In this document: piece after piece, positions 9,635-23,329 of the stretch
Layout: every line of letters starts with the position of its first letter
How positions within the stretch are numbered: position 1 is the first letter of the stretch
Assembly (NCBI GenBank): GCA_018693105.1
Contig: JABHLN010000003.1
Location: 4,782 to 68,781, forward strand
Direction of reading: 5' to 3'
DNA length: 64,000 nucleotides
Source of the DNA: Desulfobacterales bacterium
Lineage (GTDB): Bacteria > Desulfobacterota > Desulfobacteria > Desulfobacterales > SURF-7
Position numbers and translations under genes: made by a program
Notes under the pieces: model-generated
What the model saw: the letters and a program-made list of their open reading frames with translations, nothing else
What the model was told of the DNA's origin: nothing
Database searches by the model: none

Positions 9635-12094
9635 TCATAAAGTCGGATCTTCAAAAACTTTTCCCTTTATACTTTTCTGGAACTTTCCCAACCCGTAAAG
9701 ACTGATCACAAAACCATATTTGCGATCATTTTCTTCATCAACAAAATTTAAATCAATCGACCAGCACTGGGATTTATATATAACACCAGCGCTGGTTATA
9801 ATATTTTTTTTTGCGTAAAGATTCCGTTCATGATCGGCATATACAGTTACCCTGTCATTTACAACAAAGCTAAGATCAGTATATATAGATTCACTACTAT
9901 TATGTTTGTATCTGTGCTCCACGAAAAGTCTGTCCCTTCTTTTATCGGAGATTCTCATGGAAATATTATGTGACTGATAAAAGCTCTCATAAGGTGACCT
10001 TTGGGCTGTAGCTTTTATATTACAATATTTGCCAAAATCAAGTTCAAGCTCACCTTTTAAAGGTGTAACAGGACGTTTGTTTGCACCACCTATTCTTTTG
10101 GAAACAATTTCTTCCTTTGCTTCATTAATATCATAACTCTGCTCCAGCTTGAAACGACAAAATTGGTGATAGGCATAAGTGACCGGTGGTTTTTCGATAC
10201 TTTCCAAAGATTCTTCCTGACCGGGTTTCAATTCTGACTCATCCTGGGCATCAGTATCTTTCACCGATTTTGGCGTTCGATAAGTGAATGTGTTTATCAG
10301 CGAATAGGTGATAAGACTTTTTCGATTTATATTATCAAGGGAATCAAATTGAGGATATTTCACCCCCTGATTATCATTGTAAGGTATATATTCATATGCA
10401 ACTCTGGGAGTAATGCTATGTTTTATACTATTGTCATTTTCTCCTATACCGTTGTATATCCTGTACACTTGAGAAGAAACACCAACTTTAAAATCATAAA
10501 GCTCTCTGGACATTGTATCTTCATAGCGCTTGGTGTCGGATGTATCCATATTAGAAAAGAGGTATTTATCCCTGTCAAAGTGCCATATGGTTTCCTGAAA
10601 ACCGACTGAAGGCTCAATAGTTGCGTAATTCCCTATATTAAAAGGCAGATACATCCTCGGATAAGCATCTACTCTGTGCCCTCTTATCCCATCCTCCCTA
10701 TAAAAATAGGTATACTCAGAATCAAGGTCAAAATAGAAAGGAGTTTGAAAAACCTGTTGTTTTGCCCCGACAAACTCCACATAGGGCATCTTTTGAAGGG
10801 TTGTATCAGTATCATTCCAGCGTCTTGCAACAACATTATCATACCATAGAAAATCCGCATTCAGGCTGTATCCTGACCAGCTTTTGTTTATATTCAGCTT
10901 ATTGGTTCGGGTTTGATCATCAAAATCATCAAGATCCCTGCCAAAAGCCTGATTAAAATAATCATCAGTAAAATAAAATCCGGTAAGGCCGTCTTTGAAT
11001 TCACGAAGGTAATCCTGGTCACTTACAATATCAAGATCAATTTTTGCATTAAATCCGAAGGGTACCCCCTGATTATGCTTCATTCTAAACCAGTATCTGT
11101 CTTTATTAGGCCTGAGTATTTCATTTTCTTCATGGTACCCCCAATCACGATTTGATATAATGGCACCATCATCAACTTTACTGTCATGTAGAACATCAAG
11201 CATGAAAGTTCCCTTTGATTTTTCACTCAATGCATACCGGTATTCAAATCCGATCTTTTCCCCACGGCGTTCCATGTGGTGTAAATAAAAAGTAGCATCA
11301 GAACTGTCATTTATGGCCCAGTAAAAAGGCTGAATATATTCCTCCCAGGTTCTATCAGAAAACCCAAACTCCGGCGGGAGCATACCTGTCTGGCGTTTTA
11401 ATTTCACAGGGAAAATAAAATAAGGCGAATAAATTACAGGTACCTTCTTTGCCCATAATGCCGCGTGGCTGAGAAATGCATAACCTTCAATTGTAACCTT
11501 TAAATTCCTTCCGGTGATTTTCCATGCCGGATTATCTCCGTCACAGGTTGATATGCTTGCTTTATGCACCTCATATGAGTCTTTTCCTACCTTTTGAATC
11601 TCATCGCCCCTGATATAAAAATGATTTGCCTTTATGAACACAGTTCCATCAAAGATGGTCCCTGTTTCCGAATCAAGATTTATCTCCATTCGACTTCCGG
11701 CAATATAGTCTTCACCAACCGTCATGATAACATTACCTTTTGCGAATGCATCCATGGTCTTTTGATAAAAACGCACATAATCTGCTGAAAGTGTTTTAAT
11801 TCCTTTTTTTACATGCACATTACCTTTCACGACATACTGTTGATTTCTATCATCAAAACTGATGCTGTCACCAATTATATGCCATGCATCCTCGGGTTTA
11901 TCTTCAAGAAAAGAGTTCTGTATTCCGGCCTCTATCCCGCCAACCTGGAAAAAAACAGTTACAAGAAAAAGGAACACGGGGGTGAACACTTTAATATATA
12001 TACTTAAATTTTTTAAATAAGAGATATGAATATTATTCTCACTTAAAAAATCAACACTCCTATAGTTTTGTTTTGTATTATGATCCATTATCAC
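9635..12094 (-). CDS. lptD: LPS-assembly outer membrane protein LptD
   Basis: OstA-like N-domain (GNVHV, LSAD), STC..DNPAW, KRQTGMLPP, YWAI..SSDAT, C-terminal YKSQCW; true start probably downstream of 12094. Confidence 0.85.
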   Translation of the reverse strand: MIMDHNTKQNYRSVDFLSENNIHISYLKNLSIYIKVFTPVFLFLVTVFFQVGGIEAGIQNSFLEDKPEDAWHIIGDSISFDDRNQQYVVKGNVHVKKGIKTLSADYVRFYQKTMDAFAKGNVIMTVGEDYIAGSRMEINLDSETGTIFDGTVFIKANHFYIRGDEIQKVGKDSYEVHKASISTCDGDNPAWKITGRNLKVTIEGYAFLSHAALWAKKVPVIYSPYFIFPVKLKRQTGMLPPEFGFSDRTWEEYIQPFYWAINDSSDATFYLHHMERRGEKIGFEYRYALSEKSKGTFMLDVLHDSKVDDGAIISNRDWGYHEENEILRPNKDRYWFRMKHNQGVPFGFNAKIDLDIVSDQDYLREFKDGLTGFYFTDDYFNQAFGRDLDDFDDQTRTNKLNINKSWSGYSLNADFLWYDNVVARRWNDTDTTLQKMPYVEFVGAKQQVFQTPFYFDLDSEYTYFYREDGIRGHRVDAYPRMYLPFNIGNYATIEPSVGFQETIWHFDRDKYLFSNMDTSDTKRYEDTMSRELYDFKVGVSSQVYRIYNGIGENDNSIKHSITPRVAYEYIPYNDNQGVKYPQFDSLDNINRKSLITYSLINTFTYRTPKSVKDTDAQDESELKPGQEESLESIEKPPVTYAYHQFCRFKLEQSYDINEAKEEIVSKRIGGANKRPVTPLKGELELDFGKYCNIKATAQRSPYESFYQSHNISMRISDKRRDRLFVEHRYKHNSSESIYTDLSFVVNDRVTVYADHERNLYAKKNIITSAGVIYKSQCWSIDLNFVDEENDRKYGFVISLYGLGKFQKSIKGKVFEDPTL

Positions 12095-12103
12095 CGATTC
12101 TAA

Positions 12104-12250
12104 AAGAGCCCTTTGTATAACGTCCCTTTTTGTCCGATTTCTATGTCAGGCTCAATTTTTTAACCCTCGAAATACTATGTGTATTAATGTCGTTAAAATT
12201 TTCACCTTCCTTGAACTTAAACAAAAATGAACGCTCTTCAAAGATCTCTT
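12104..12250. repeat. Palindromic element family B, second copy
   Basis: Aligns along its length with 6591-6732; imperfect terminal IRs AAGAG...CTCTT. Confidence 0.75.
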
Positions 12251-12523
12251 GAATAAATGTGGAAAAATTCAATTTCCGAGTTGAAAGATAACATCTTGTA
12301 TACTTATAAAAAATTAAGTATAAATCTAATCGAGTGAAAAAAGTCAAGATGTAGTTTATTTAAAAAAATCATAACAGATAGCTGAATATAAATCTTTATC
12401 TGCAATTCGTAGCGGTTGATCAGGAGTCATGGCACTCATATAATGCATCAAACTTCTGGCCATCACTATAAAGCATTAGTCTCGAAAAAGCTTGATATAT
12501 AAGACAGTAAAATTTCTAATATT

Positions 12524-13300
12524 ATGAAAATTCTTCTAACTAACGACGACGGCATTTATGCAAAAGGTCTTTGGGCTTTATATGACAGGCTTTCAATGAA
12601 GCACAGCCTTACTATAGTCGCGCCGGCAAGTGAAAAAAGTGCTGTTGGGCATGGATTAACCCTTCATCGCCCTCTTCGTGTAAAAAACACTGAAATCTTT
12701 AAAAACAAATGGGGATATTCTGTAAACGGCACACCTGTAGACTGCATTAAACTGAGTATACTTGAGATCCTCAATGAAAAACCGGACATGGTAATCTCCG
12801 GGATCAATCCGGGTGCAAACACAGGAGTTAACATCAATTATTCAGGTACTGTGGCCGCAGCAAGAGAGGCCGCCCTATACGGTATAACTTCAATAGCGGT
12901 TTCCATGCAGGGGAAAAAGCCTGAGCATTATGATGATGCCGCGGCTTTTATTGAGAAACTTGCAGAAAATATTTATAAAAAACCGCCCCTCTTGGGTACT
13001 GTTATAAACGTAAACATTCCTGATCTGCCTAAACATATGATAGCAGGTACAAAGATTATCCGGCAAAGTATGAAACACCCCGAAGAATATGTAAAAAAAA
13101 ATGTCGATCCCAGGGGAAGTTCATATTTCTGGCATGGAATCAATTCAAAATTAAACGGAAGTGATCCTGATTCTGATGAAGATGTTTTGTTAAGAAATTA
13201 TATCGCAATAACACCTGTAAAATGCGACACAACTGATTATAGCATAATTGATGAAATGAACAATTGGGAAATTGACAAGTGCCTTGGAACTGCCAGGTAG
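12524..13300 (+). CDS. surE: 5'/3'-nucleotidase SurE
   Basis: ILLTNDDG, GTPVDC, SGINPGAN, YSGTVAAA. Confidence 0.95.
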   Translation: MKILLTNDDGIYAKGLWALYDRLSMKHSLTIVAPASEKSAVGHGLTLHRPLRVKNTEIFKNKWGYSVNGTPVDCIKLSILEILNEKPDMVISGINPGANTGVNINYSGTVAAAREAALYGITSIAVSMQGKKPEHYDDAAAFIEKLAENIYKKPPLLGTVINVNIPDLPKHMIAGTKIIRQSMKHPEEYVKKNVDPRGSSYFWHGINSKLNGSDPDSDEDVLLRNYIAITPVKCDTTDYSIIDEMNNWEIDKCLGTAR

Positions 13301-13361
13301 TGGAAGCTATCTAAAAAACGGACTTTACAACTCAATGTCCGAAGGAGTATAAAACCTGAGG

Positions 13362-13430
13362 CTGGTTCTATTGGTTCCATTAGTTTGATTAGTTCGATTA
13401 GTTAACCAATAAAACTAATTAAACCAATTC
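13362..13430. repeat. Mirror-arranged 9-bp periodic repeat forming a hairpin
   Basis: ctggttcta ttggttcca ttagtttga ttagttcga ttagtt then aaccaataa aactaatta aaccaattc. Confidence 0.65.
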
Positions 13431-13465
13431 AATAGGTTATTATTTATAGAGGTTAGGCTGATATC

Positions 13466-14098
13466 ATGTTCATTACACTTGAAGGTATAGAAGGCTCCGG
13501 TAAAACAACGCAGCTGGAAAATATAGTAGAATTTATGAATGACAGGCATTATGAATATGTTGTTACAAGAGAACCGGGTGGCACTGCGATTGGGAAAGAA
13601 ATCAGGGCCATACTTTTAAGCCCCGACACAAAAAACCTGAACAGTCTTACTGAACTTCTTTTATATGCTGCTGATAGGGCGCAGCATGTTAAAGAGGTTA
13701 TTATTCCTACACTTGATTCCGGTAAAACCGTTATATGTGACCGTTTTTTTGATGCAACAACAGCATATCAGGGCTTTGCAAGGGGTCTTGATATGAAACA
13801 GATAAAAATACTACATGAAATCATATTAGGTAGTTTGAAACCCGACATTACACTCCTGTTTGACCTTCCACCTGAAACAGGTCTTAAACGAGCATGGACA
13901 CAGATTAATAATGGTGGGCGGTCTGAGAACGAAACCCGTTTTGAAAAGGAAATGATTTCTTTTCATGAAAAAGTCAGAAAAGGTTATCTTAAAATAGCAG
14001 ATACTGAACATGAGCGGTTTCATGTCATTGATGCATCAAAAAATGTAGACCAGGTAAAAAAAGCAATAATAGATATCCTGTCAGATAAAATGCCTTAA
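13466..14098 (+). CDS. tmk: Thymidylate kinase
   Basis: FITLEGIEGSGKTT, TREPGG, ADRAQH, CDRF, AYQG. Confidence 0.95.
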   Translation: MFITLEGIEGSGKTTQLENIVEFMNDRHYEYVVTREPGGTAIGKEIRAILLSPDTKNLNSLTELLLYAADRAQHVKEVIIPTLDSGKTVICDRFFDATTAYQGFARGLDMKQIKILHEIILGSLKPDITLLFDLPPETGLKRAWTQINNGGRSENETRFEKEMISFHEKVRKGYLKIADTEHERFHVIDASKNVDQVKKAIIDILSDKMP

Positions 14099-14112
14099 AG
14101 GTATTAATAATA

Positions 14113-14142
14113 ATGAACTCGTAAAAAGTATAACCGATGGCT
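14113..14142. repeat. Repeat family A end fragment (reverse orientation)
   Basis: ATGAACTCGTAAAAAGTATAACCGATGGCT is the reverse complement of the family A end. Confidence 0.8.
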
Positions 14143-14189
14143 CCAACATATTATTATATAAAATCCGTATGAGGTCAGGAATAAATTAA

Positions 14190-16466
14190 ATGAATCGTAC
14201 AATTTTAGATTCCATAGGAAACACACCACTTGTTGAAATCAGAAACCTGAATCCGAACCCGGACGTAAAAATCCTTGCGAAGCTGGAGTATTTTAATCCC
14301 GGTGGCTCCATTAAAGATAGACCGGCCCTATATATGATTAATGCTGCTGAACAATCAGGTGAACTGACAAAAGACAGGACAGTTATTGAGGCAACCAGTG
14401 GCAATACAGGTATTGGGCTCGCTCTTGTTTGTTCGGTTAAAGGGTACAAACTTTTACTGACAATGTCTGAAGCGGTCAGTCAGGAAAGACAGAAAATCCT
14501 GAAAGCAAGGGGGGCAGATATTCTGCTGACTCCCGGACACCTGGGAACTGATGGTGCAATAGAGGAAGCCTACAGATTAACACGCGAAAATCCCGAAAAA
14601 TATTTCATAACTGACCAGTTCAACAATGAATATAACTGGCGCTCTCACTATTATGGAACAGCTGAAGAAATCTGGGAACAGACAAAAGGTCAGGTATCGA
14701 CTGTTGTAGCGACTCTTGGAACAACCGGCACTGTAATGGGTATATCAAGAAAACTAAAAGAATATAAACCGGATATCCGGATAGTCGGTGTTGAACCATA
14801 TTTGGGGCACAAAATTCAAGGTCTCAAAAATATGAAAGAGGCATATCAGCCTGAGATTTTTGAAAAAAAACGGCTTGATAAAAAAATCAACATTGATGAT
14901 GAAGAAGCCTATGAGATGGCAAGAAATCTGGCAAGAGAAGAGGGCTTGTTTGTAGGTATGAGCAGTGGAGCAGCTATGGTTGTTGCCTGTGAGGAAGCCA
15001 GAAAAATGGATAAGGGTACAATTGTTGTAATACTGCCGGATAACGGGGAACGGTATCTAAGCACTTCTCTTTTTGCAGTACAGGAAAAAATTGGCCTGAT
15101 GTTAACAAATACAATGAGCCGAAACAAAGAACCGTTTGAACCGGTCGTACCCGGTAAGGTTTCAATGTATTCATGCGGACCTACCGCACATGCCCGACTG
15201 CATATTGGTGAATGCAGGCGTTTTGTATTTGCCGATCTTCTTAGTAGATATCTTGAATACAGGGGATATGATGTCACTCATATAATAAACATAACAGATC
15301 TTGACGATAAAACCATAATAGGTTCTGAAAAAGCCGGTATGGAATTGTCAGATTTTACAGAAAAGCATATTAAATCATTTAAAGAAGACCTTGAAGCACT
15401 TTATATAAAACCTGCAACAAGGTATCCGCGTACAAGTGAACATGTCGAAGATATGGTGGATCTTGCCGGGAAACTAGTAAATAAAGGAGCTGCATATGAA
15501 AAGCTTCGTTCTCTTTATTTTAACATTTCCCGTTTTCCCGAATACGGAAAACTCTCAGGCATAGATATTAACAAGATAAGACTGGGTGCAACCGTTGACC
15601 TGGACGAATATGAAAAGGATAATCCAAGGGATTTCACCCTCCTGAAAAGAACCCGGCTCTCGGAACTGAAAAGGGGAATTTACGTTAAAACAAAATGGGG
15701 AAATGTTCGGCCTTCCTGGCATATACAATGTGCTGCAATGTCTATGAAATATCTTGGGGAAAAATTTGACATTCATACAAGCTCTCGCGAACTGGTTTTC
15801 CCGCATCATGAAAATGAACTTGCTATTTCAAAAACTGTAACAGGAAAATCTCTTGCCAAATATTGGGTTCACTGTGACAGGGTTCTTGTAGACGGGAAAA
15901 AGGTTGATGAAAAAGGTGCCGGCCTGACACTTGAAGATTTAACTGGCATGGGTTACTCACCAAGAAAAATAAGATATTGGCTTCTTTCAACTCATTACAG
16001 AAAGTCTCTTACTTTCTCAAAAGGAAGAATTGAAAATACGAGCCTGTCTTTAAAAAGGCTGAATACTTTCATAAAAAACATGAAGAGTATAACTGAAGGA
16101 GAAGCCTATCCGGAGCTTGATCAATTAATTTATGATATAAAACAGGGTTTCACAAACGCCATGGATGATGACCTTAATATTTCAGCAGCCATGGCCTCAA
16201 TATTTAAGACAATAAAAAAAGTAAATACCCTTAAAATCAAAAAAGAAATTGATCCTGAAGGAGCACATAGAGTTGTTGAGGCCATGAAAGATATTAATAA
16301 GGTTCTGAATTTTATAAATTTTGATGATAATAAATCCGATCCTGAGATACAAAGACTAATTTCTGAAAGAGAAAATGCAAGAAAAAATAAAAACTGGGAG
16401 CTTTCTGATCTGATCAGGGATCAGCTGCTGGCAAAAGGTGTTAATATCAGTGATAATAAATATTGA
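14190..16466 (+). CDS. cysS: Cysteine synthase (CysM-like) fused to a cysteinyl-tRNA synthetase domain
   Basis: Residues 1-~295: IGNTPL, NPGGSIKDR, EATSGNTG, GTTGT, GMSSGA. Residues ~300-758: CGPT, HIGE, NITDLDDK, WHIQC, FPHHENE, AMDDDLN and anticodon-binding helices. Confidence 0.9.
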   Translation: MNRTILDSIGNTPLVEIRNLNPNPDVKILAKLEYFNPGGSIKDRPALYMINAAEQSGELTKDRTVIEATSGNTGIGLALVCSVKGYKLLLTMSEAVSQERQKILKARGADILLTPGHLGTDGAIEEAYRLTRENPEKYFITDQFNNEYNWRSHYYGTAEEIWEQTKGQVSTVVATLGTTGTVMGISRKLKEYKPDIRIVGVEPYLGHKIQGLKNMKEAYQPEIFEKKRLDKKINIDDEEAYEMARNLAREEGLFVGMSSGAAMVVACEEARKMDKGTIVVILPDNGERYLSTSLFAVQEKIGLMLTNTMSRNKEPFEPVVPGKVSMYSCGPTAHARLHIGECRRFVFADLLSRYLEYRGYDVTHIINITDLDDKTIIGSEKAGMELSDFTEKHIKSFKEDLEALYIKPATRYPRTSEHVEDMVDLAGKLVNKGAAYEKLRSLYFNISRFPEYGKLSGIDINKIRLGATVDLDEYEKDNPRDFTLLKRTRLSELKRGIYVKTKWGNVRPSWHIQCAAMSMKYLGEKFDIHTSSRELVFPHHENELAISKTVTGKSLAKYWVHCDRVLVDGKKVDEKGAGLTLEDLTGMGYSPRKIRYWLLSTHYRKSLTFSKGRIENTSLSLKRLNTFIKNMKSITEGEAYPELDQLIYDIKQGFTNAMDDDLNISAAMASIFKTIKKVNTLKIKKEIDPEGAHRVVEAMKDINKVLNFINFDDNKSDPEIQRLISERENARKNKNWELSDLIRDQLLAKGVNISDNKY

Positions 16467-16526
16467 TGGCGTCGTATATGAAGATTTCTACTTAGCCATC
16501 GGTTATACTTTTTACGAGTTCATCAA
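16463..16526. repeat. Internally deleted family A element carrying both terminal IRs (TTGATG...CATCAA), TA-flanked
   Basis: TATTGATGGCGTCGTA...TACGAGTTCATCAATA; includes the TGA stop of the cysM-cysS fusion. Confidence 0.8.
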
Positions 16527-16544
16527 TAATAGGAAGTTTTATAA

Positions 16545-17528
16545 ATGAAACCTGTTTATTTCCCTCATACATTTATTTCAGAGCAGATGGTTTCTACCGT
16601 TTGTAATTTTTTCCAACAGATAGTCGTTTACCAGCCTTCAGAGATTAATATACCTGAAAACATTCAAAAAATGGCTGACAACGGCATACTTGAAATAAAA
16701 ATTCCGATTGATAAAGACGGAGAAAAACTTGATAGTATCAGCAGAGATTTCAGAGACTGGAGAAGTCTTGTTACAGGAGTTGAATCATCATATTTAAAAA
16801 CCCAAAAAGGCCGGGTCCCTTTTTTTGAAGATTCTGCAATATCCCGTATAAGATCAAATATTAAGGACAAATCGGAGAATACTACGAAAGAAAATCCGGA
16901 CACAGATCTTAATGCCAGATTATTTCTTTTGCTTTCACAGCAATATGACATGCAGAAACATGAAATAGATCAAAACCTTCTACTCACCCAGAACATGGAA
17001 CAGGAAATTTTCAACAAACTCATTGACGACAGGGCTGATTTGACGGGAAGCGGCCTTGAAGATCCTGCAATAGACTTAAAACCCAAAGTAAGCCCTGATG
17101 ATAATATGATTAGTGAACGAATCTCTTCATGGACTCGCTTGTTTATGCATGATCGTGACATTTCCGGCCTTTACATAACACACAGTAAGGCAATATTTGA
17201 ATATTTAATTGAAAAAACAAACGACTCAGAAATCTTATCAGGTTCTGATTCAATACATTTGCCGATTTTACAACCTCATGAAATGAAAAAATGGCAGGAA
17301 ACTCTTATAAATAAAATCACAGCTTTGGCAGACGGCAGCCTGACAGGTATTAAGGATAACATTCCACGACAAAATGATAATAATAGAAATATGACTTCAC
17401 TATCACTTTGCCGTGTAGCAGGAAAAACACCTTATGAATTTTTTGGAGGATTTTTAGAAAACAACGCTTCAGTAAAGGTGGTTACCAACACTATTTATAA
17501 AAACTGCATATTCGGACTTATAAAATAA
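16545..17528 (+). CDS. Hypothetical protein
   Basis: 327-aa ORF with typical composition; no motif recognised. Confidence 0.7.
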   Translation: MKPVYFPHTFISEQMVSTVCNFFQQIVVYQPSEINIPENIQKMADNGILEIKIPIDKDGEKLDSISRDFRDWRSLVTGVESSYLKTQKGRVPFFEDSAISRIRSNIKDKSENTTKENPDTDLNARLFLLLSQQYDMQKHEIDQNLLLTQNMEQEIFNKLIDDRADLTGSGLEDPAIDLKPKVSPDDNMISERISSWTRLFMHDRDISGLYITHSKAIFEYLIEKTNDSEILSGSDSIHLPILQPHEMKKWQETLINKITALADGSLTGIKDNIPRQNDNNRNMTSLSLCRVAGKTPYEFFGGFLENNASVKVVTNTIYKNCIFGLIK

Positions 17529-17676
17529 ATTAAGTGGTATGAAAAAAATATTTCAAACCCTTGACTCACATTATCAATTAGTATATGGATTTCACTTAAT
17601 TCTAAAAAGAATATTATTTGCTAAAAAATAATAGAATTTATTAATAATTATTTACAATCAAATGGGAGGAAATAAA

Positions 17677-17865
17677 ATGGCGTTTAATGCAATAGTTGAC
17701 AAAGAAAAATGCACCGGTTGTGAAGAGTGCGTAGATGTTTGCCCGGTTGAAGTATTTGAAATTGTAGACGGTAAATCAGACCCTGTTAATGCTGATGAAT
17801 GTCTTGGTTGCGAAAGCTGTGTTGAAGTTTGTGAAGTTGATGCAATTACAATTGAGGAAGATTAA
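17677..17865 (+). CDS. 2x[4Fe-4S] ferredoxin
   Basis: CTGCEECVDVCP and CLGCESCVEVC; GGAGG RBS favours ATG at 17677. Confidence 0.93.
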   Translation: MAFNAIVDKEKCTGCEECVDVCPVEVFEIVDGKSDPVNADECLGCESCVEVCEVDAITIEED

Positions 17866-17883
17866 TACAGATTTCAGAACAAC

Positions 17884-17925
17884 AATCCCCTGATTATATA
17901 GCATATATTACCAGGGGATTTTTTT
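17884..17925 (+). terminator. Rho-independent terminator after the ferredoxin gene
   Basis: AATCCCCTG...CAGGGGATT stem followed by a T run. Confidence 0.7.
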
Positions 17926-18134
17926 ATATTACTAAGCTGCATTCCCTAATAATGCCTTTTAACAACGGCATTGCTATCTATCCAAATATTTAAGACGCTC
18001 AAGCCCTGGGGCATTAGTTATCATAAGGCTGGTTATTCATAATCTGATTCACCTTGATACCAGGATACAAATATTAATTTGTGATTCCTGCTTATTAAAA
18101 GATCTTCTTGCTTTTTTTTATTTAATAAAAAGAT

Positions 18135-19406
18135 ATGACACAAAATCAAATATTATTTCCGGATATGGCTGTTGTAAAACAAAAGCTATACAAATCCTGT
18201 ATAAACAACATACCAGAAATAATATCTTCATCACTTTCAGATATTTCTCCTTTTAAAAATATTAAACCCGGCGAAACGGTTGCTATAGCAGTCGGAAGCA
18301 GAGGAATAGACAAGATCAATTCAGTTGTATTGAACTGTATTCAATTCCTGAAGGGAAAAGGGTTAAAACCTTTTATTGTTCCTGCAATGGGAAGCCATGG
18401 AGGCGCTACAGCGGAAGGGCAGGAAAAAACCCTTGAAAAGCTCGGAATTACTGAAACATCTATGGGTGCTCCCATTTTTCCTGAGATGGAAACCTGTAGC
18501 CTTGATAAACTCCCCTGCGGCCTTAATATTTATTTCTCAAAAAAGGCTCTGGAGGCAGACCATATTGTTGTAATAAACAGGATTAAGCCGCACACCAAAT
18601 TTACAGAAGATATAGAAAGCGGCCTTTGTAAGATGTTAACAATCGGCCTTGGAAAAATTGACGGGGCGGCTGAATTTCATCGTTTCGCTATAGGAAATTC
18701 TTTTAAAATTATTGAAGAGGCTGTAGCGATAATTTTAAAAAAATGTAATATTCTCTTCGGCCTGGCCCTCACAGAAGATGGTTATGGCAATCTTTCACAT
18801 ATTGAAACGATTGATTCTTCATCCCTTATAGAAAAAGAAAAAAACCTGCTTAAAGATGTATACAAAAAAATGAGTAAGATTCCTTTTGATAATCTGGACA
18901 TCCTGATTGTTGATTATATAGGTAAAAATATCAGCGGAATAGGAATGGATTCCAATATTACCGGTAGGCATATTGATATTACTGGTGATTTTAAATCAAG
19001 CCCGCATGTTAAAAGAATTTTTGTAAGAGATCTGGATCCTGATTCAGACGGCAACGCTAATGGAATAGGCCTTGCAGATTTTACGACAAAAAGACTTGTA
19101 AATGCCGTTGAATTTGAAAAAACATATATAAATGCTCTTACTGCAATTTCGCCTGAAAAAGCCGCCATCCCCATTTATTTCGATTCAGACAGGCAGGTTC
19201 TCAACGCATGCTTTCAAACCATAGGGCTGGATTCGACCGTTAATGCGCGTATAGTCAGAATAAAAAGCACTGCAAGTCTTGAATTAATGGAAATTTCAAA
19301 AACGCTTGAAAAGGAAATTAATGATAACCTTGGAATTGAACAAATATCAGAATGGAGACCATTACAGTTCAATAATAACGGAAATCTAATTGAATTAATT
19401 GGATAG
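18135..19406 (+). CDS. Lactate racemase N-terminal (DUF2088/DUF362)-like protein
   Basis: AVGSRGI, PAMGSHGGATAEGQ, NRIKPHT, ESGLCKMLTIGLGK, GKNISGIGMD, GNANGIGLAD. Confidence 0.75.
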   Translation: MTQNQILFPDMAVVKQKLYKSCINNIPEIISSSLSDISPFKNIKPGETVAIAVGSRGIDKINSVVLNCIQFLKGKGLKPFIVPAMGSHGGATAEGQEKTLEKLGITETSMGAPIFPEMETCSLDKLPCGLNIYFSKKALEADHIVVINRIKPHTKFTEDIESGLCKMLTIGLGKIDGAAEFHRFAIGNSFKIIEEAVAIILKKCNILFGLALTEDGYGNLSHIETIDSSSLIEKEKNLLKDVYKKMSKIPFDNLDILIVDYIGKNISGIGMDSNITGRHIDITGDFKSSPHVKRIFVRDLDPDSDGNANGIGLADFTTKRLVNAVEFEKTYINALTAISPEKAAIPIYFDSDRQVLNACFQTIGLDSTVNARIVRIKSTASLELMEISKTLEKEINDNLGIEQISEWRPLQFNNNGNLIELIG

Positions 19407-22807: not shown

Positions 22808-23329
22808 ATGAAGCAATTGCAGATTCAATTAAAATCAATAGCCAAAGCCCTTACCTCTCTCGCCAAGAAAGTAGAGACTGCCTCAAAGCAGATTGAAAAA
22901 CTCCAGGCAAAACCCGCAGCAAAAAAGAAAAAGACAGTCAAAAAAGCCGCTCCAAAGAAAAAAATAGTTAAGAAAAAAATAGTTAAGAAAAAAATAGTTA
23001 AAAAAAAAATAGTTAAAAAAACCGTAGCAAAGAAAAAAGCTGCTCCGGCAAAAAAGAAAGCAGCAAAAAAGAAAAAAGCTGCTCCGGCAAAAAAGAAAGC
23101 GGTAACAAAGAAAAAAGCTGCTCCGGCAAAAAAGAAAGCCGGAAAGGCCAAGGAATCTGTCATTGATAAGGTTTTTGACGTAATCAAAAGAAGCAAAAAA
23201 GGTATTGATAACGACGGTATTAAAAAGAAAACCGGTTTTGATTCAAGACAGGTCAGCAATGCCATATACAAACTTACTAAAAAAGGCGACATAAAAACCG
23301 CCGCACGCGGCATGTACGTGAAAAAATAA
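22808..23329 (+). CDS. Lys/Ala-rich histone H1-like protein with a C-terminal winged-helix-like domain
   Basis: KKKIV repeats and KKKAAPAKKKA repeats; C-terminal IKKKTGFDSRQVSNAIYKLTKKG; AGGAGG RBS. Confidence 0.8.
   Translation: MKQLQIQLKSIAKALTSLAKKVETASKQIEKLQAKPAAKKKKTVKKAAPKKKIVKKKIVKKKIVKKKIVKKTVAKKKAAPAKKKAAKKKKAAPAKKKAVTKKKAAPAKKKAGKAKESVIDKVFDVIKRSKKGIDNDGIKKKTGFDSRQVSNAIYKLTKKGDIKTAARGMYVKK

Follow-up and report, generated by a model that had tools for sequence, protein, structure and literature searches.

We analysed a stretch of 64,000 nucleotides (the window) from a Desulfobacterales bacterium (GCA_018693105.1, contig JABHLN010000003.1, positions 4,782 to 68,781 of the forward strand). 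An open reading frame (ORF) at 14190-16466 (+) encodes a protein of 758 aa, P0001, without internal stops, in which a CysM-type cysteine synthase (CS) is fused to a module derived from cysteinyl-tRNA synthetase (CysRS). This CS-CysRS fusion is real, widespread and mislabelled. In our best explanation, which we rate at about an even chance, P0001 would be a tRNA-Cys-gated cysteine synthase, probably using phosphoserine and working like GCN2 or HisZ. A fuller version, which we put somewhat short of even, is that uncharged tRNA-Cys moves a helix bridging the two synthase lobes. The fusion would then be a post-translational valve for cysteine demand in sulfide-rich bacteria, derived from an undescribed CS-CysRS complex whose ligase is still intact in genomes of Woesearchaeota and Parcubacteria type. 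The parts of the gene on which this reading rests are listed below; counts out of 95 refer to a non-redundant set of P0001 and 94 fusions less than 85% identical to each other.

14190..16466 (+): fusion gene, CysM-type cysteine synthase plus pseudo-CysRS, 758 aa, P0001 (ORF, Pfam, NCBIfam, AlphaFold2)
14190..15077 (+): pyridoxal 5'-phosphate (PLP) fold-II cysteine synthase domain, aa 1-296, with PLP Lys42, TSGNT loop and Gln143 (TIGR01136; K42, N72 and Q143 in 95/95)
14559..14624 (+): predicted docking patch on the CS N-terminal lobe, aa 124-132 and 140-145, including E125, Y128 and D142 (predicted interface, co-variation)
14826..14828 (+): Lys213 in GLKNM, at the position of E. coli CysM Arg210 and M. 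tuberculosis CysM Arg220 (alignment; 95/95)
14835..14855 (+): predicted docking loop on the CS C-terminal lobe, aa 216-222, including E217, Y219 and P221 (predicted interface, co-variation)
15090..16463 (+): CysRS-like module, aa 301-758, comprising Rossmann fold, connective peptide (CP) domain, DALR bundle and anticodon domain (Pfam, alignment, fold search)
15174..15221 (+): zinc ligand Cys329, degenerate HIGH (HIGE 338-341) and family-specific Arg343-Arg344 (motif scan, family alignment)
15645..15677 (+): family-specific CP-domain insertion helix KRTRLSELKRG, aa 486-496, predicted to dock on the CS (model helix 490-495; predicted interface)
15729..15818 (+): zinc ligands Cys514, His539 and Glu543, and the loop DIHTSSRE replacing DIHxGGxD (motif scan, alignment)
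15897..15914 (+): degenerate KMSKS loop KKVDEK (motif scan, alignment)
16341..16463 (+): anticodon-binding domain with R727, R731, D740, R743 and D755, corresponding to E. coli R423, R427, D436, R439 and D451 (alignment to 1LI5)

Pfam assigned PALP to residues 6-284 (E 6e-73) and tRNA-synt_1e to residues 316-617 (E 1e-82), followed by DALR_2 (654-707) and CysS_C (717-756). A preliminary description of this DNA had proposed a PLP cysteine synthase joined to a CysRS domain. The single ORF, the domain assignments and the homologues bear this out, and the motifs quoted there were all found where expected: GGSIKDR (38-44), IQGLKN in HKIQGLKN (207-214), CGPT in SCGPT (328-332), HIGE (338-341), WHIQC (510-514), DIHTSS in DIHTSSRE (527-534), HHENE (539-543) and KKVDEK (570-575). 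P0001 passes the cut-offs of both TIGR01136 (CysK/CysM cysteine synthase, 367 vs 344 bits) and TIGR00435 (cysteine--tRNA ligase, 378 vs 340 bits), and the latter score explains the database label "cysteine--tRNA ligase". It falls below the CysM equivalogs TIGR01138 (356 vs 394) and NF008735 (336 vs 413), below the cysK cut-off, and far below MshC (TIGR03447, 182 vs 485). The same architecture occurs in 119 further full-length homologues with 71-76% identity to P0001, which, together with the presence of the fusion in 110/121 genomes of the order, rules out an assembly chimera. The AlphaFold2 model, built on an alignment of 130 sequences, had a mean predicted local distance difference test score (pLDDT) of 89.8 and a predicted template modelling score (pTM) of 0.76. 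In a fold search it matched CysRS and O-acetylserine sulfhydrylase structures, and the CysRS-like half has the fold of a class I CysRS, not that of a class II HisRS derivative.

In a phylum sample, the fusion was counted in 101/251 genomes. A match at E<=1e-150 was required in the order and in the phylum sample alike; both counts include a few contig-edge fragments or copies with stops. The host also has a canonical CysRS, on contig C106 beside ispF, in which HIGH, DIHGGG and KMSKS are intact and to which the CysRS half of P0001 is 35% identical. One tRNA-Cys(GCA) was found in the genome. A separate, better-scoring cysS was present in 104/110 fusion-bearing genomes of the order, and ten lower-scoring cysS of the order proved on inspection to be intact HIGN-type enzymes. 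In the phylum sample, 100/101 fusion genomes had a separate canonical cysS. The exceptions include G038, whose second cysS is a piece with one stop, and G116, in which the second match is a candidate. The search for a second canonical cysS that the preliminary description had suggested was thus positive, and the fusion is not the only cysS of its genome, the situation that it had named as speaking against its proposal.

Several further copies and paralogues were observed in the order. G105 (L145, L146) and G077 (L143) carry two fusion copies each, and G095 has a copy with four stops (L142). Several families (L177-L186, L203) have a housekeeping CysRS of HIGN type that carries an insertion behind ITD; it belongs to a clade other than the usual one, which suggests replacement of cysS. 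In addition, L201:1231-2694 (G026) and L202:1429-2730 (G030) code for a CysRS paralogue with HxGN and KMSKS, no anticodon domain, and a second zinc cysteine replaced by Asp (WNIQD/WNVQD, RHHDY). This paralogue is possibly a tRNA-independent ligase.

The fetched loci yielded 155 fused ORFs, of which 148 were distinct and 139 were 735-830 aa long. The nine rows left out were five contig-edge fragments, the pseudogene piece L142, the frameshifted L159 and L160, and the second copy L143. In the non-redundant set, HxGH, GGxD and KM[SA]K were each found in 0/95 fusions, whereas HxG[HN], GGxD and KM[SA]K were present in all 26 housekeeping CysRS used as controls. HxGN occurred in 5/95 and KMS[KR] in 12/95. 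The ATP-site positions vary freely across the family, with the KMSKS loop deleted in some members, and P0001 has acidic or bulky residues at four of them (HIGE, SSRE, CD, KVDE). These replacements suggest that its CysRS half is probably without aminoacylation. The degenerate motifs named in the preliminary description are therefore present, with one refinement of the reference state: the parent clade reads HIGN/DIHTGG rather than HIGH/DIHGGG. Measured against that clade, P0001 has lost the N (now E), GGxD (now SSRE) and KMSKS (now KVDEK), and it has gained an Arg at 344; R343-R344 is conserved in the family.

The anticodon domain shows the opposite pattern. R727, D740, R743 and D755 were found in 95/95 fusions, and R731 was Arg in 90 and Lys in 5; with R731 as Arg or Lys, the five residues are retained in 139/139 full-length fusions. 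We take E. coli R423 and D451 to be anticodon-reading residues as well, alongside the other equivalents. R427, D436 and R439 are anticodon contacts of E. coli CysRS and were mutated in an earlier study (PMC4536326). Across the 95 fusions, conservation ranked anticodon readers above the cysteine pocket, and the cysteine pocket above the ATP site. That the anticodon readers outlast both the zinc and the ATP sites points to tRNA-Cys as the ligand that matters, and to its binding as the conserved job of the module.

The zinc site bears directly on an alternative that we consider unlikely, namely product feedback of the HisZ type. Here the module would bind cysteine, or the cysteinyl end of Cys-tRNA, at the zinc site and use the helix to inhibit the synthase, while tRNA would have a minor role. 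P0001 retains all four ligands (C329, C514, H539, E543), HisZ provides a precedent for histidine (PMC9437257), and the docking evidence presented below fits this explanation equally well. E. coli CysRS uses C28 and C209 as zinc ligands (PMC5660078). Among the fusions, all four ligands are kept in 61/95 and C, C and H in 78/95. The remaining two E. coli ligands are presumably H234 and E238. One or both zinc cysteines have, however, been lost in 17/95 members, in several separate places of the tree, whereas the anticodon readers are kept in 95/95. For this reason cysteine sensing looks secondary. Of the options in the preliminary description, a Cys/tRNA-sensing domain is the best supported, given the drifting ATP site, the fixed anticodon readers and a predicted, co-varying interface joining the halves; its tRNA part is favoured and its cysteine part is not.

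The interface involves an insertion in the CP domain (K486-G496) that is absent from the 26 housekeeping CysRS. When two copies of aa 1-297 were modelled with aa 300-640 as a separate chain, the interaction prediction score from aligned errors (ipSAE) was 0.64, against 0.00 for the best control. A score of 0.64 was reached by 116/157 solved complexes and 2/215 mismatched pairs, counts that hold only roughly for this case, in which our own alignment was supplied and three chains were modelled. Runs agreed in at least 87% of contacts, and the pLDDT of the partner was at least 82. No solved chain spanning both the synthase and the CysRS halves was found by sequence and fold searches, so memory of a similar complex is unlikely. 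In the predicted complex, the insertion helix (487-496) lies on synthase residues 124-132, 140-145 and 216-222, that is, on the N-terminal lobe beside the substrate-binding Gln143 and just past the CysM-type loop. The equivalent residues of O-acetylserine sulfhydrylase A (OASS-A), Met119, Gln142, Phe143 and Ala231, sit at the ligand pocket (PMC3805590). The helix is thus predicted to dock across the active-site cleft of the CS, and might control the open-closed cycle described for the synthase (PMC9547175).

The synthase side of the interface can be followed as a set of five residues (E125, Y128, D142, E217 and Y/F219). Among fused sequences, 94/95, 68/68 and 8/8 carried this patch, as did 7/7 split pairs in which the CysRS bears the helix. 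The corresponding counts were 0/8 for pairs or fusions with a helix-less CysRS, 0/9 for lone CS and 0/8 for actinobacterial CysM. In the sequences examined, the patch occurs only where a helix-bearing partner exists. An interface that is conserved and older than the loss of catalysis would also suit a constitutive scaffold, in which the helix lets the module stabilise or activate the synthase, or the module anchors the synthase to tRNA or the translation machinery, in neither case switching it. A change of activity is, in addition, only deduced in the explanation that we prefer. We regard such a scaffold as distinctly unlikely, as lone synthases of the same subfamily do without the patch, and five invariant anticodon readers in proteins of 43-75% overall identity would be needless.

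A tRNA-gated synthase could work as follows. The dead CysRS module, with its anticodon readers retained, would bind tRNA-Cys without charging it. Charged tRNA is taken up by EF-Tu, and uncharged tRNA is for this reason the expected activator. Build-up of uncharged tRNA-Cys would act through the docking helix across the synthase cleft and switch on cysteine synthesis. Free cysteine at the retained zinc site might provide a second, inhibitory input.

The origin of the helix was traced through intact relatives. A profile search of 50% clusters found P0243, labelled as a Nanoarchaeota protein, in which the same synthase type is fused to an intact CysRS (HIGN, DIHTGG, KMSKS). The synthase lies beside or fused to an intact, helix-less CysRS in L204, L205, L207, L209-L212 and L216 (state A). 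A patch-bearing synthase lies beside an intact, helix-bearing CysRS at seven loci, L284-L288, L290 and L300 (state B), and the fused and degenerate form made up 68/80 loci of one locus search (state C). The record titles of state B include Woesearchaeota, Nealsonbacteria and Parcubacteria, although some titles of metagenome-assembled genomes (MAGs) are doubtful given the gene order. In all five B genomes searched, small MAGs whose completeness is not established, the helix-bearing CysRS was the only CysRS found, and cysE was not found in any of the five. Three B loci adjoin genes for HcyBio and NIL-ferredoxin (sulfide-dependent homocysteine synthesis), which co-occur with SepCysS (PMC5424206). 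Two of the genomes, G363 (L285) and G366 (L290), are flagged as unpublished and account for 2/7 B loci, 2/5 sole-CysRS genomes and 2/3 HcyBio neighbourhoods; without them state B still rests on L284, L286, L287, L288 and L300.

A CysRS tree was built from 68 hand-picked domains (449 columns, helix columns removed, Shimodaira-Hasegawa (SH)-like supports) and rooted on the host housekeeping cysS. States B and C and three stand-alone degenerate proteins formed one clade (33/33, SH-like 0.95), which sits inside the HIGN/TGG lineage with the degenerate forms nested in it (0.95). An earlier tree, with its midpoint root inside the fusions, was used only for the spread of zinc-ligand losses. P0001 is 50% identical to the intact helix-bearing CysRS of L286 and 69% identical to the other L286 protein. 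Since intact CysRS relatives already carry the helix, docking came before loss of the ATP site. We infer that an ancestor already equipped with a cysS of its own acquired a CS-CysRS gene pair whose CysRS was active and docking, that the pair then fused, and that selection maintained docking and tRNA reading while the ligase function decayed.

Related arrangements were also seen. P0257, P0260 and P0266 are stand-alone degenerate CysRS with a docking helix, for which no synthase partner was located; the cluster headed by P0257 has 58 members, with a recurring length of 468 aa. A hexapeptide-repeat (CysE-like) domain is fused to a CysM-type synthase in P0349 and to an intact CysRS in P0331. In the host genome (G000), HcyBio, NIL-ferredoxin and UPF0280-like homologues are scattered on contigs C21, C116 and C56, and the same three kinds of gene flank an intact synthase-CysRS pair in three other loci.

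In the synthase half, the PLP lysine, TSGNT loop, Gln and glycine-rich phosphate loop are present, and K42, N72, Q143 and K213 were each found in 95/95. Through an actinobacterial CysM, K213 aligns with M. tuberculosis Arg220 and E. coli Arg210 (PDB 3dwi, 2bhs), a position that helps to select O-phosphoserine in some organisms (PMC3805590). A cysE match was missing in 53/101 fusion genomes vs 36/150 others of the phylum sample, in which kin are not independent. In seven of eight single-contig, cysE-less fusion genomes, the fusion was the only CS-grade PALP enzyme, although in one of the seven (G132) it is frameshifted after the synthase half; the eighth (G351) has two further CS-grade PALP proteins. 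Two single-contig genomes with cysE have a second synthase directly beside it. P0271, a relative, joins a GLKN-type synthase to an N-terminal ParB/SerK-like domain; among solved structures, this domain matches free serine kinase best (E 4e-7). These observations point to O-phosphoserine as the probable substrate. Cysteine feedback normally acts on CysE (PMC9547175), so with the fusion as the sole CS the usual feedback is missing in those seven genomes. If phosphoserine is the substrate, CysE feedback would be bypassed, which would be a reason for control at the synthase itself.

These features also weigh on the distinctly unlikely proposal of tRNA-linked chemistry, in which the module would hold an aminoacyl-tRNA-Cys (Ser-, phosphoseryl- or Cys-) for conversion or removal at the PLP site, as an analogue of SepCysS or of an editing domain. 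Docking is predicted on the CP domain, the acceptor-stem handler (PMC5389517), and the remodelled pocket and R343-R344 are conserved. However, the carboxylate-binding loop and Q143 do not vary, and it is a free alpha-carboxylate that triggers closure (PMC9547175). As the only cysteine synthase of cysE-less closed genomes, the fusion must make free cysteine there, and no conserved partner ligase gene lies nearby.

Several observations weigh against tRNA gating by a dead ligase. The direction of control is assumed, and the co-variation of patch and helix follows the tree, so that it may reflect a single origin and not many events. L159 and L160 are frameshifted ahead of the anticodon domain, which is still encoded downstream, and L143, the second copy of G077, has lost the domain. 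A near-usable set of HxGN, GxD and KMSR occurs in 4/95 fusions, and from their motifs these four members could still be active. The replaced pocket is conserved in close relatives (R533 and E534 in 120/120, E341 in 117/120), and this could reflect new chemistry rather than decay. A canonical cysS was not found in the fusion-bearing drafts G001, G030, G065, G095 and G262 (91-95% complete), and that of G156 is gapped over its KMSKS region. O-acetylserine is used by E. coli CysM, although this enzyme is also basic at the Lys213 position (PMC9547175), which makes the substrate assignment tentative, and the host itself has cysE (long-type) and CysK, both on contig C10. In one RNA run with a small share, a 255-base contig fell in tmk and only 32-43-base pieces fell in the fusion gene, which the contigs did not cover.

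Some of these points would suit a still active, unusual CysRS that channels fresh cysteine onto tRNA-Cys, as would the TIGR00435 score, the fold and zinc ligands and the intact helix-bearing CysRS standing alone in 5/5 small genomes, but we hold it to be very improbable given the altered, freely varying ATP site, the deleted KMSKS loops and the nearly constant presence of a canonical cysS. Channelling from cysteine synthesis to tRNA charging, as raised in the preliminary description, needs an active ligase and is therefore unlikely for P0001; it may apply to the intact helix-bearing relatives instead. A role of the CysRS half in persulfide synthesis also found no support. CARS-type persulfide synthesis requires the KIIK and KMSK lysines (PMC5660078), which are not both retained in P0001, where these positions read KTII and KVDE.

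The surroundings of the fusion gene were compared across 93 loci, with tmk as a neighbour in 41/93 and surE in 26/93; lptD and an unknown ORF were further neighbours. In the window, this context is represented as follows.

12524..14098 (+): upstream surE and tmk, a conserved housekeeping context in the order (Pfam/NCBIfam; locus counts)

No conserved partner gene, sulfur carrier (CysO-type) or partner ligase was found near the fusion in these loci. No Rfam match to an upstream RNA regulator was found in 11500-18500, and promoter and terminator counts near the gene were at the level of shuffled sequence. Autoinhibition by a C-terminal Ile tail, as in CysE-CysK, was rejected, as the last residue is Ile in only 12/120. 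Directly downstream, a 327-aa ORF at 16545-17528 (+) has no Pfam or NCBIfam match, and apparent homologues with a similar N-terminus occur in 40/93 fusion loci. A nickel-pincer cofactor-dependent isomerase of group 22 lies at 18135-19406 (+), with a similar gene in 12/93 loci. At 22808-23329 (+), a 173-aa Lys/Ala-rich protein has repeated KKK-type units and presumably resembles histone H1-like proteins.

Among known systems, the HisRS-like domain of GCN2 is similar in being a synthetase-like module that lacks adenylation elements, keeps its catalytic-fold and anticodon domains and is fused to the enzyme that it regulates (PMC11363354). It is, however, a class II derivative on a eukaryotic kinase, while the module of P0001 derives from a class I CysRS and sits on a metabolic enzyme; and the GCN2 anticodon domain lacks decoding side chains (PMC11363354), whereas P0001 keeps the cognate anticodon readers. 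HisZ is likewise an inactive synthetase paralogue tied to an enzyme making its own amino acid, HisG (PMC9437257). In contrast to the fused module of P0001, it is a separate HisRS-derived subunit that senses free histidine (PMC9437257). The fusion may be likened to both in working only, and is not a member of either class. In P0001 the anticodon domain is the most conserved part of the module, a domain that HisZ, as we assume, lacks.

Compared with canonical CysRS (TIGR00435; PDB 1LI5, 1U0B, 8QHP), P0001 shares the fold, zinc ligands, CP domain, DALR bundle and anticodon residues. It differs in lacking HIGH, GGxD and KMSKS and in having an extra docking helix and an N-terminal synthase; it differs from the host's own cysS lineage in that its module belongs to the HIGN/TGG clade. 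With CysM and O-phosphoserine sulfhydrylases (2BHS, 3DKI) it has in common the PLP lysine, the substrate loop, a short CysM-type loop and a basic residue at the Arg210/Arg220 position. That residue is Lys and not Arg, however, no CysO-type carrier is conserved nearby, the scores are below the cysM cut-offs, and P0001 carries a docking patch and a fused module. CysRS* of Desulfobacterales is also a second CysRS copy in the same order, but it has no anticodon domain, it goes with selB* and selC* by linkage, and a tRNA-charging role has been proposed for it (PMC5389517). P0001, with an anticodon domain and tmk and surE as neighbours, is the opposite case. The review table of PMC9437257 gives only CysRS* and MshC as CysRS paralogues. 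No description of the fusion was found in the literature searched, a scope outside which lie subscription journals and supplements, and such genes might appear in the supplementary cysS survey of PMC5389517. Nor is the fusion described in the available portions of PMC2922099, PMC8762117 and PMC5424206. What appears to be newly recognised is the predicted docking helix, the matching CS patch and the putative pairs of synthase and intact, helix-bearing CysRS.

The fusion belongs to the near-core genes of a major order of sulfate reducers, and in several closed genomes no other cysteine synthase was found. Most database entries call it "cysteine--tRNA ligase", so models of cysteine synthesis in these organisms are probably wrong. 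The intact docking relatives provide a natural series from gene pair through complex to pseudo-enzyme. To our knowledge, bacteria couple amino acid supply to tRNA charging by regulating gene expression, by means of attenuation, T-boxes and RelA. If our explanation is true, direct control of an enzyme by its own tRNA would be a new regulatory layer, and a prokaryotic parallel to GCN2.

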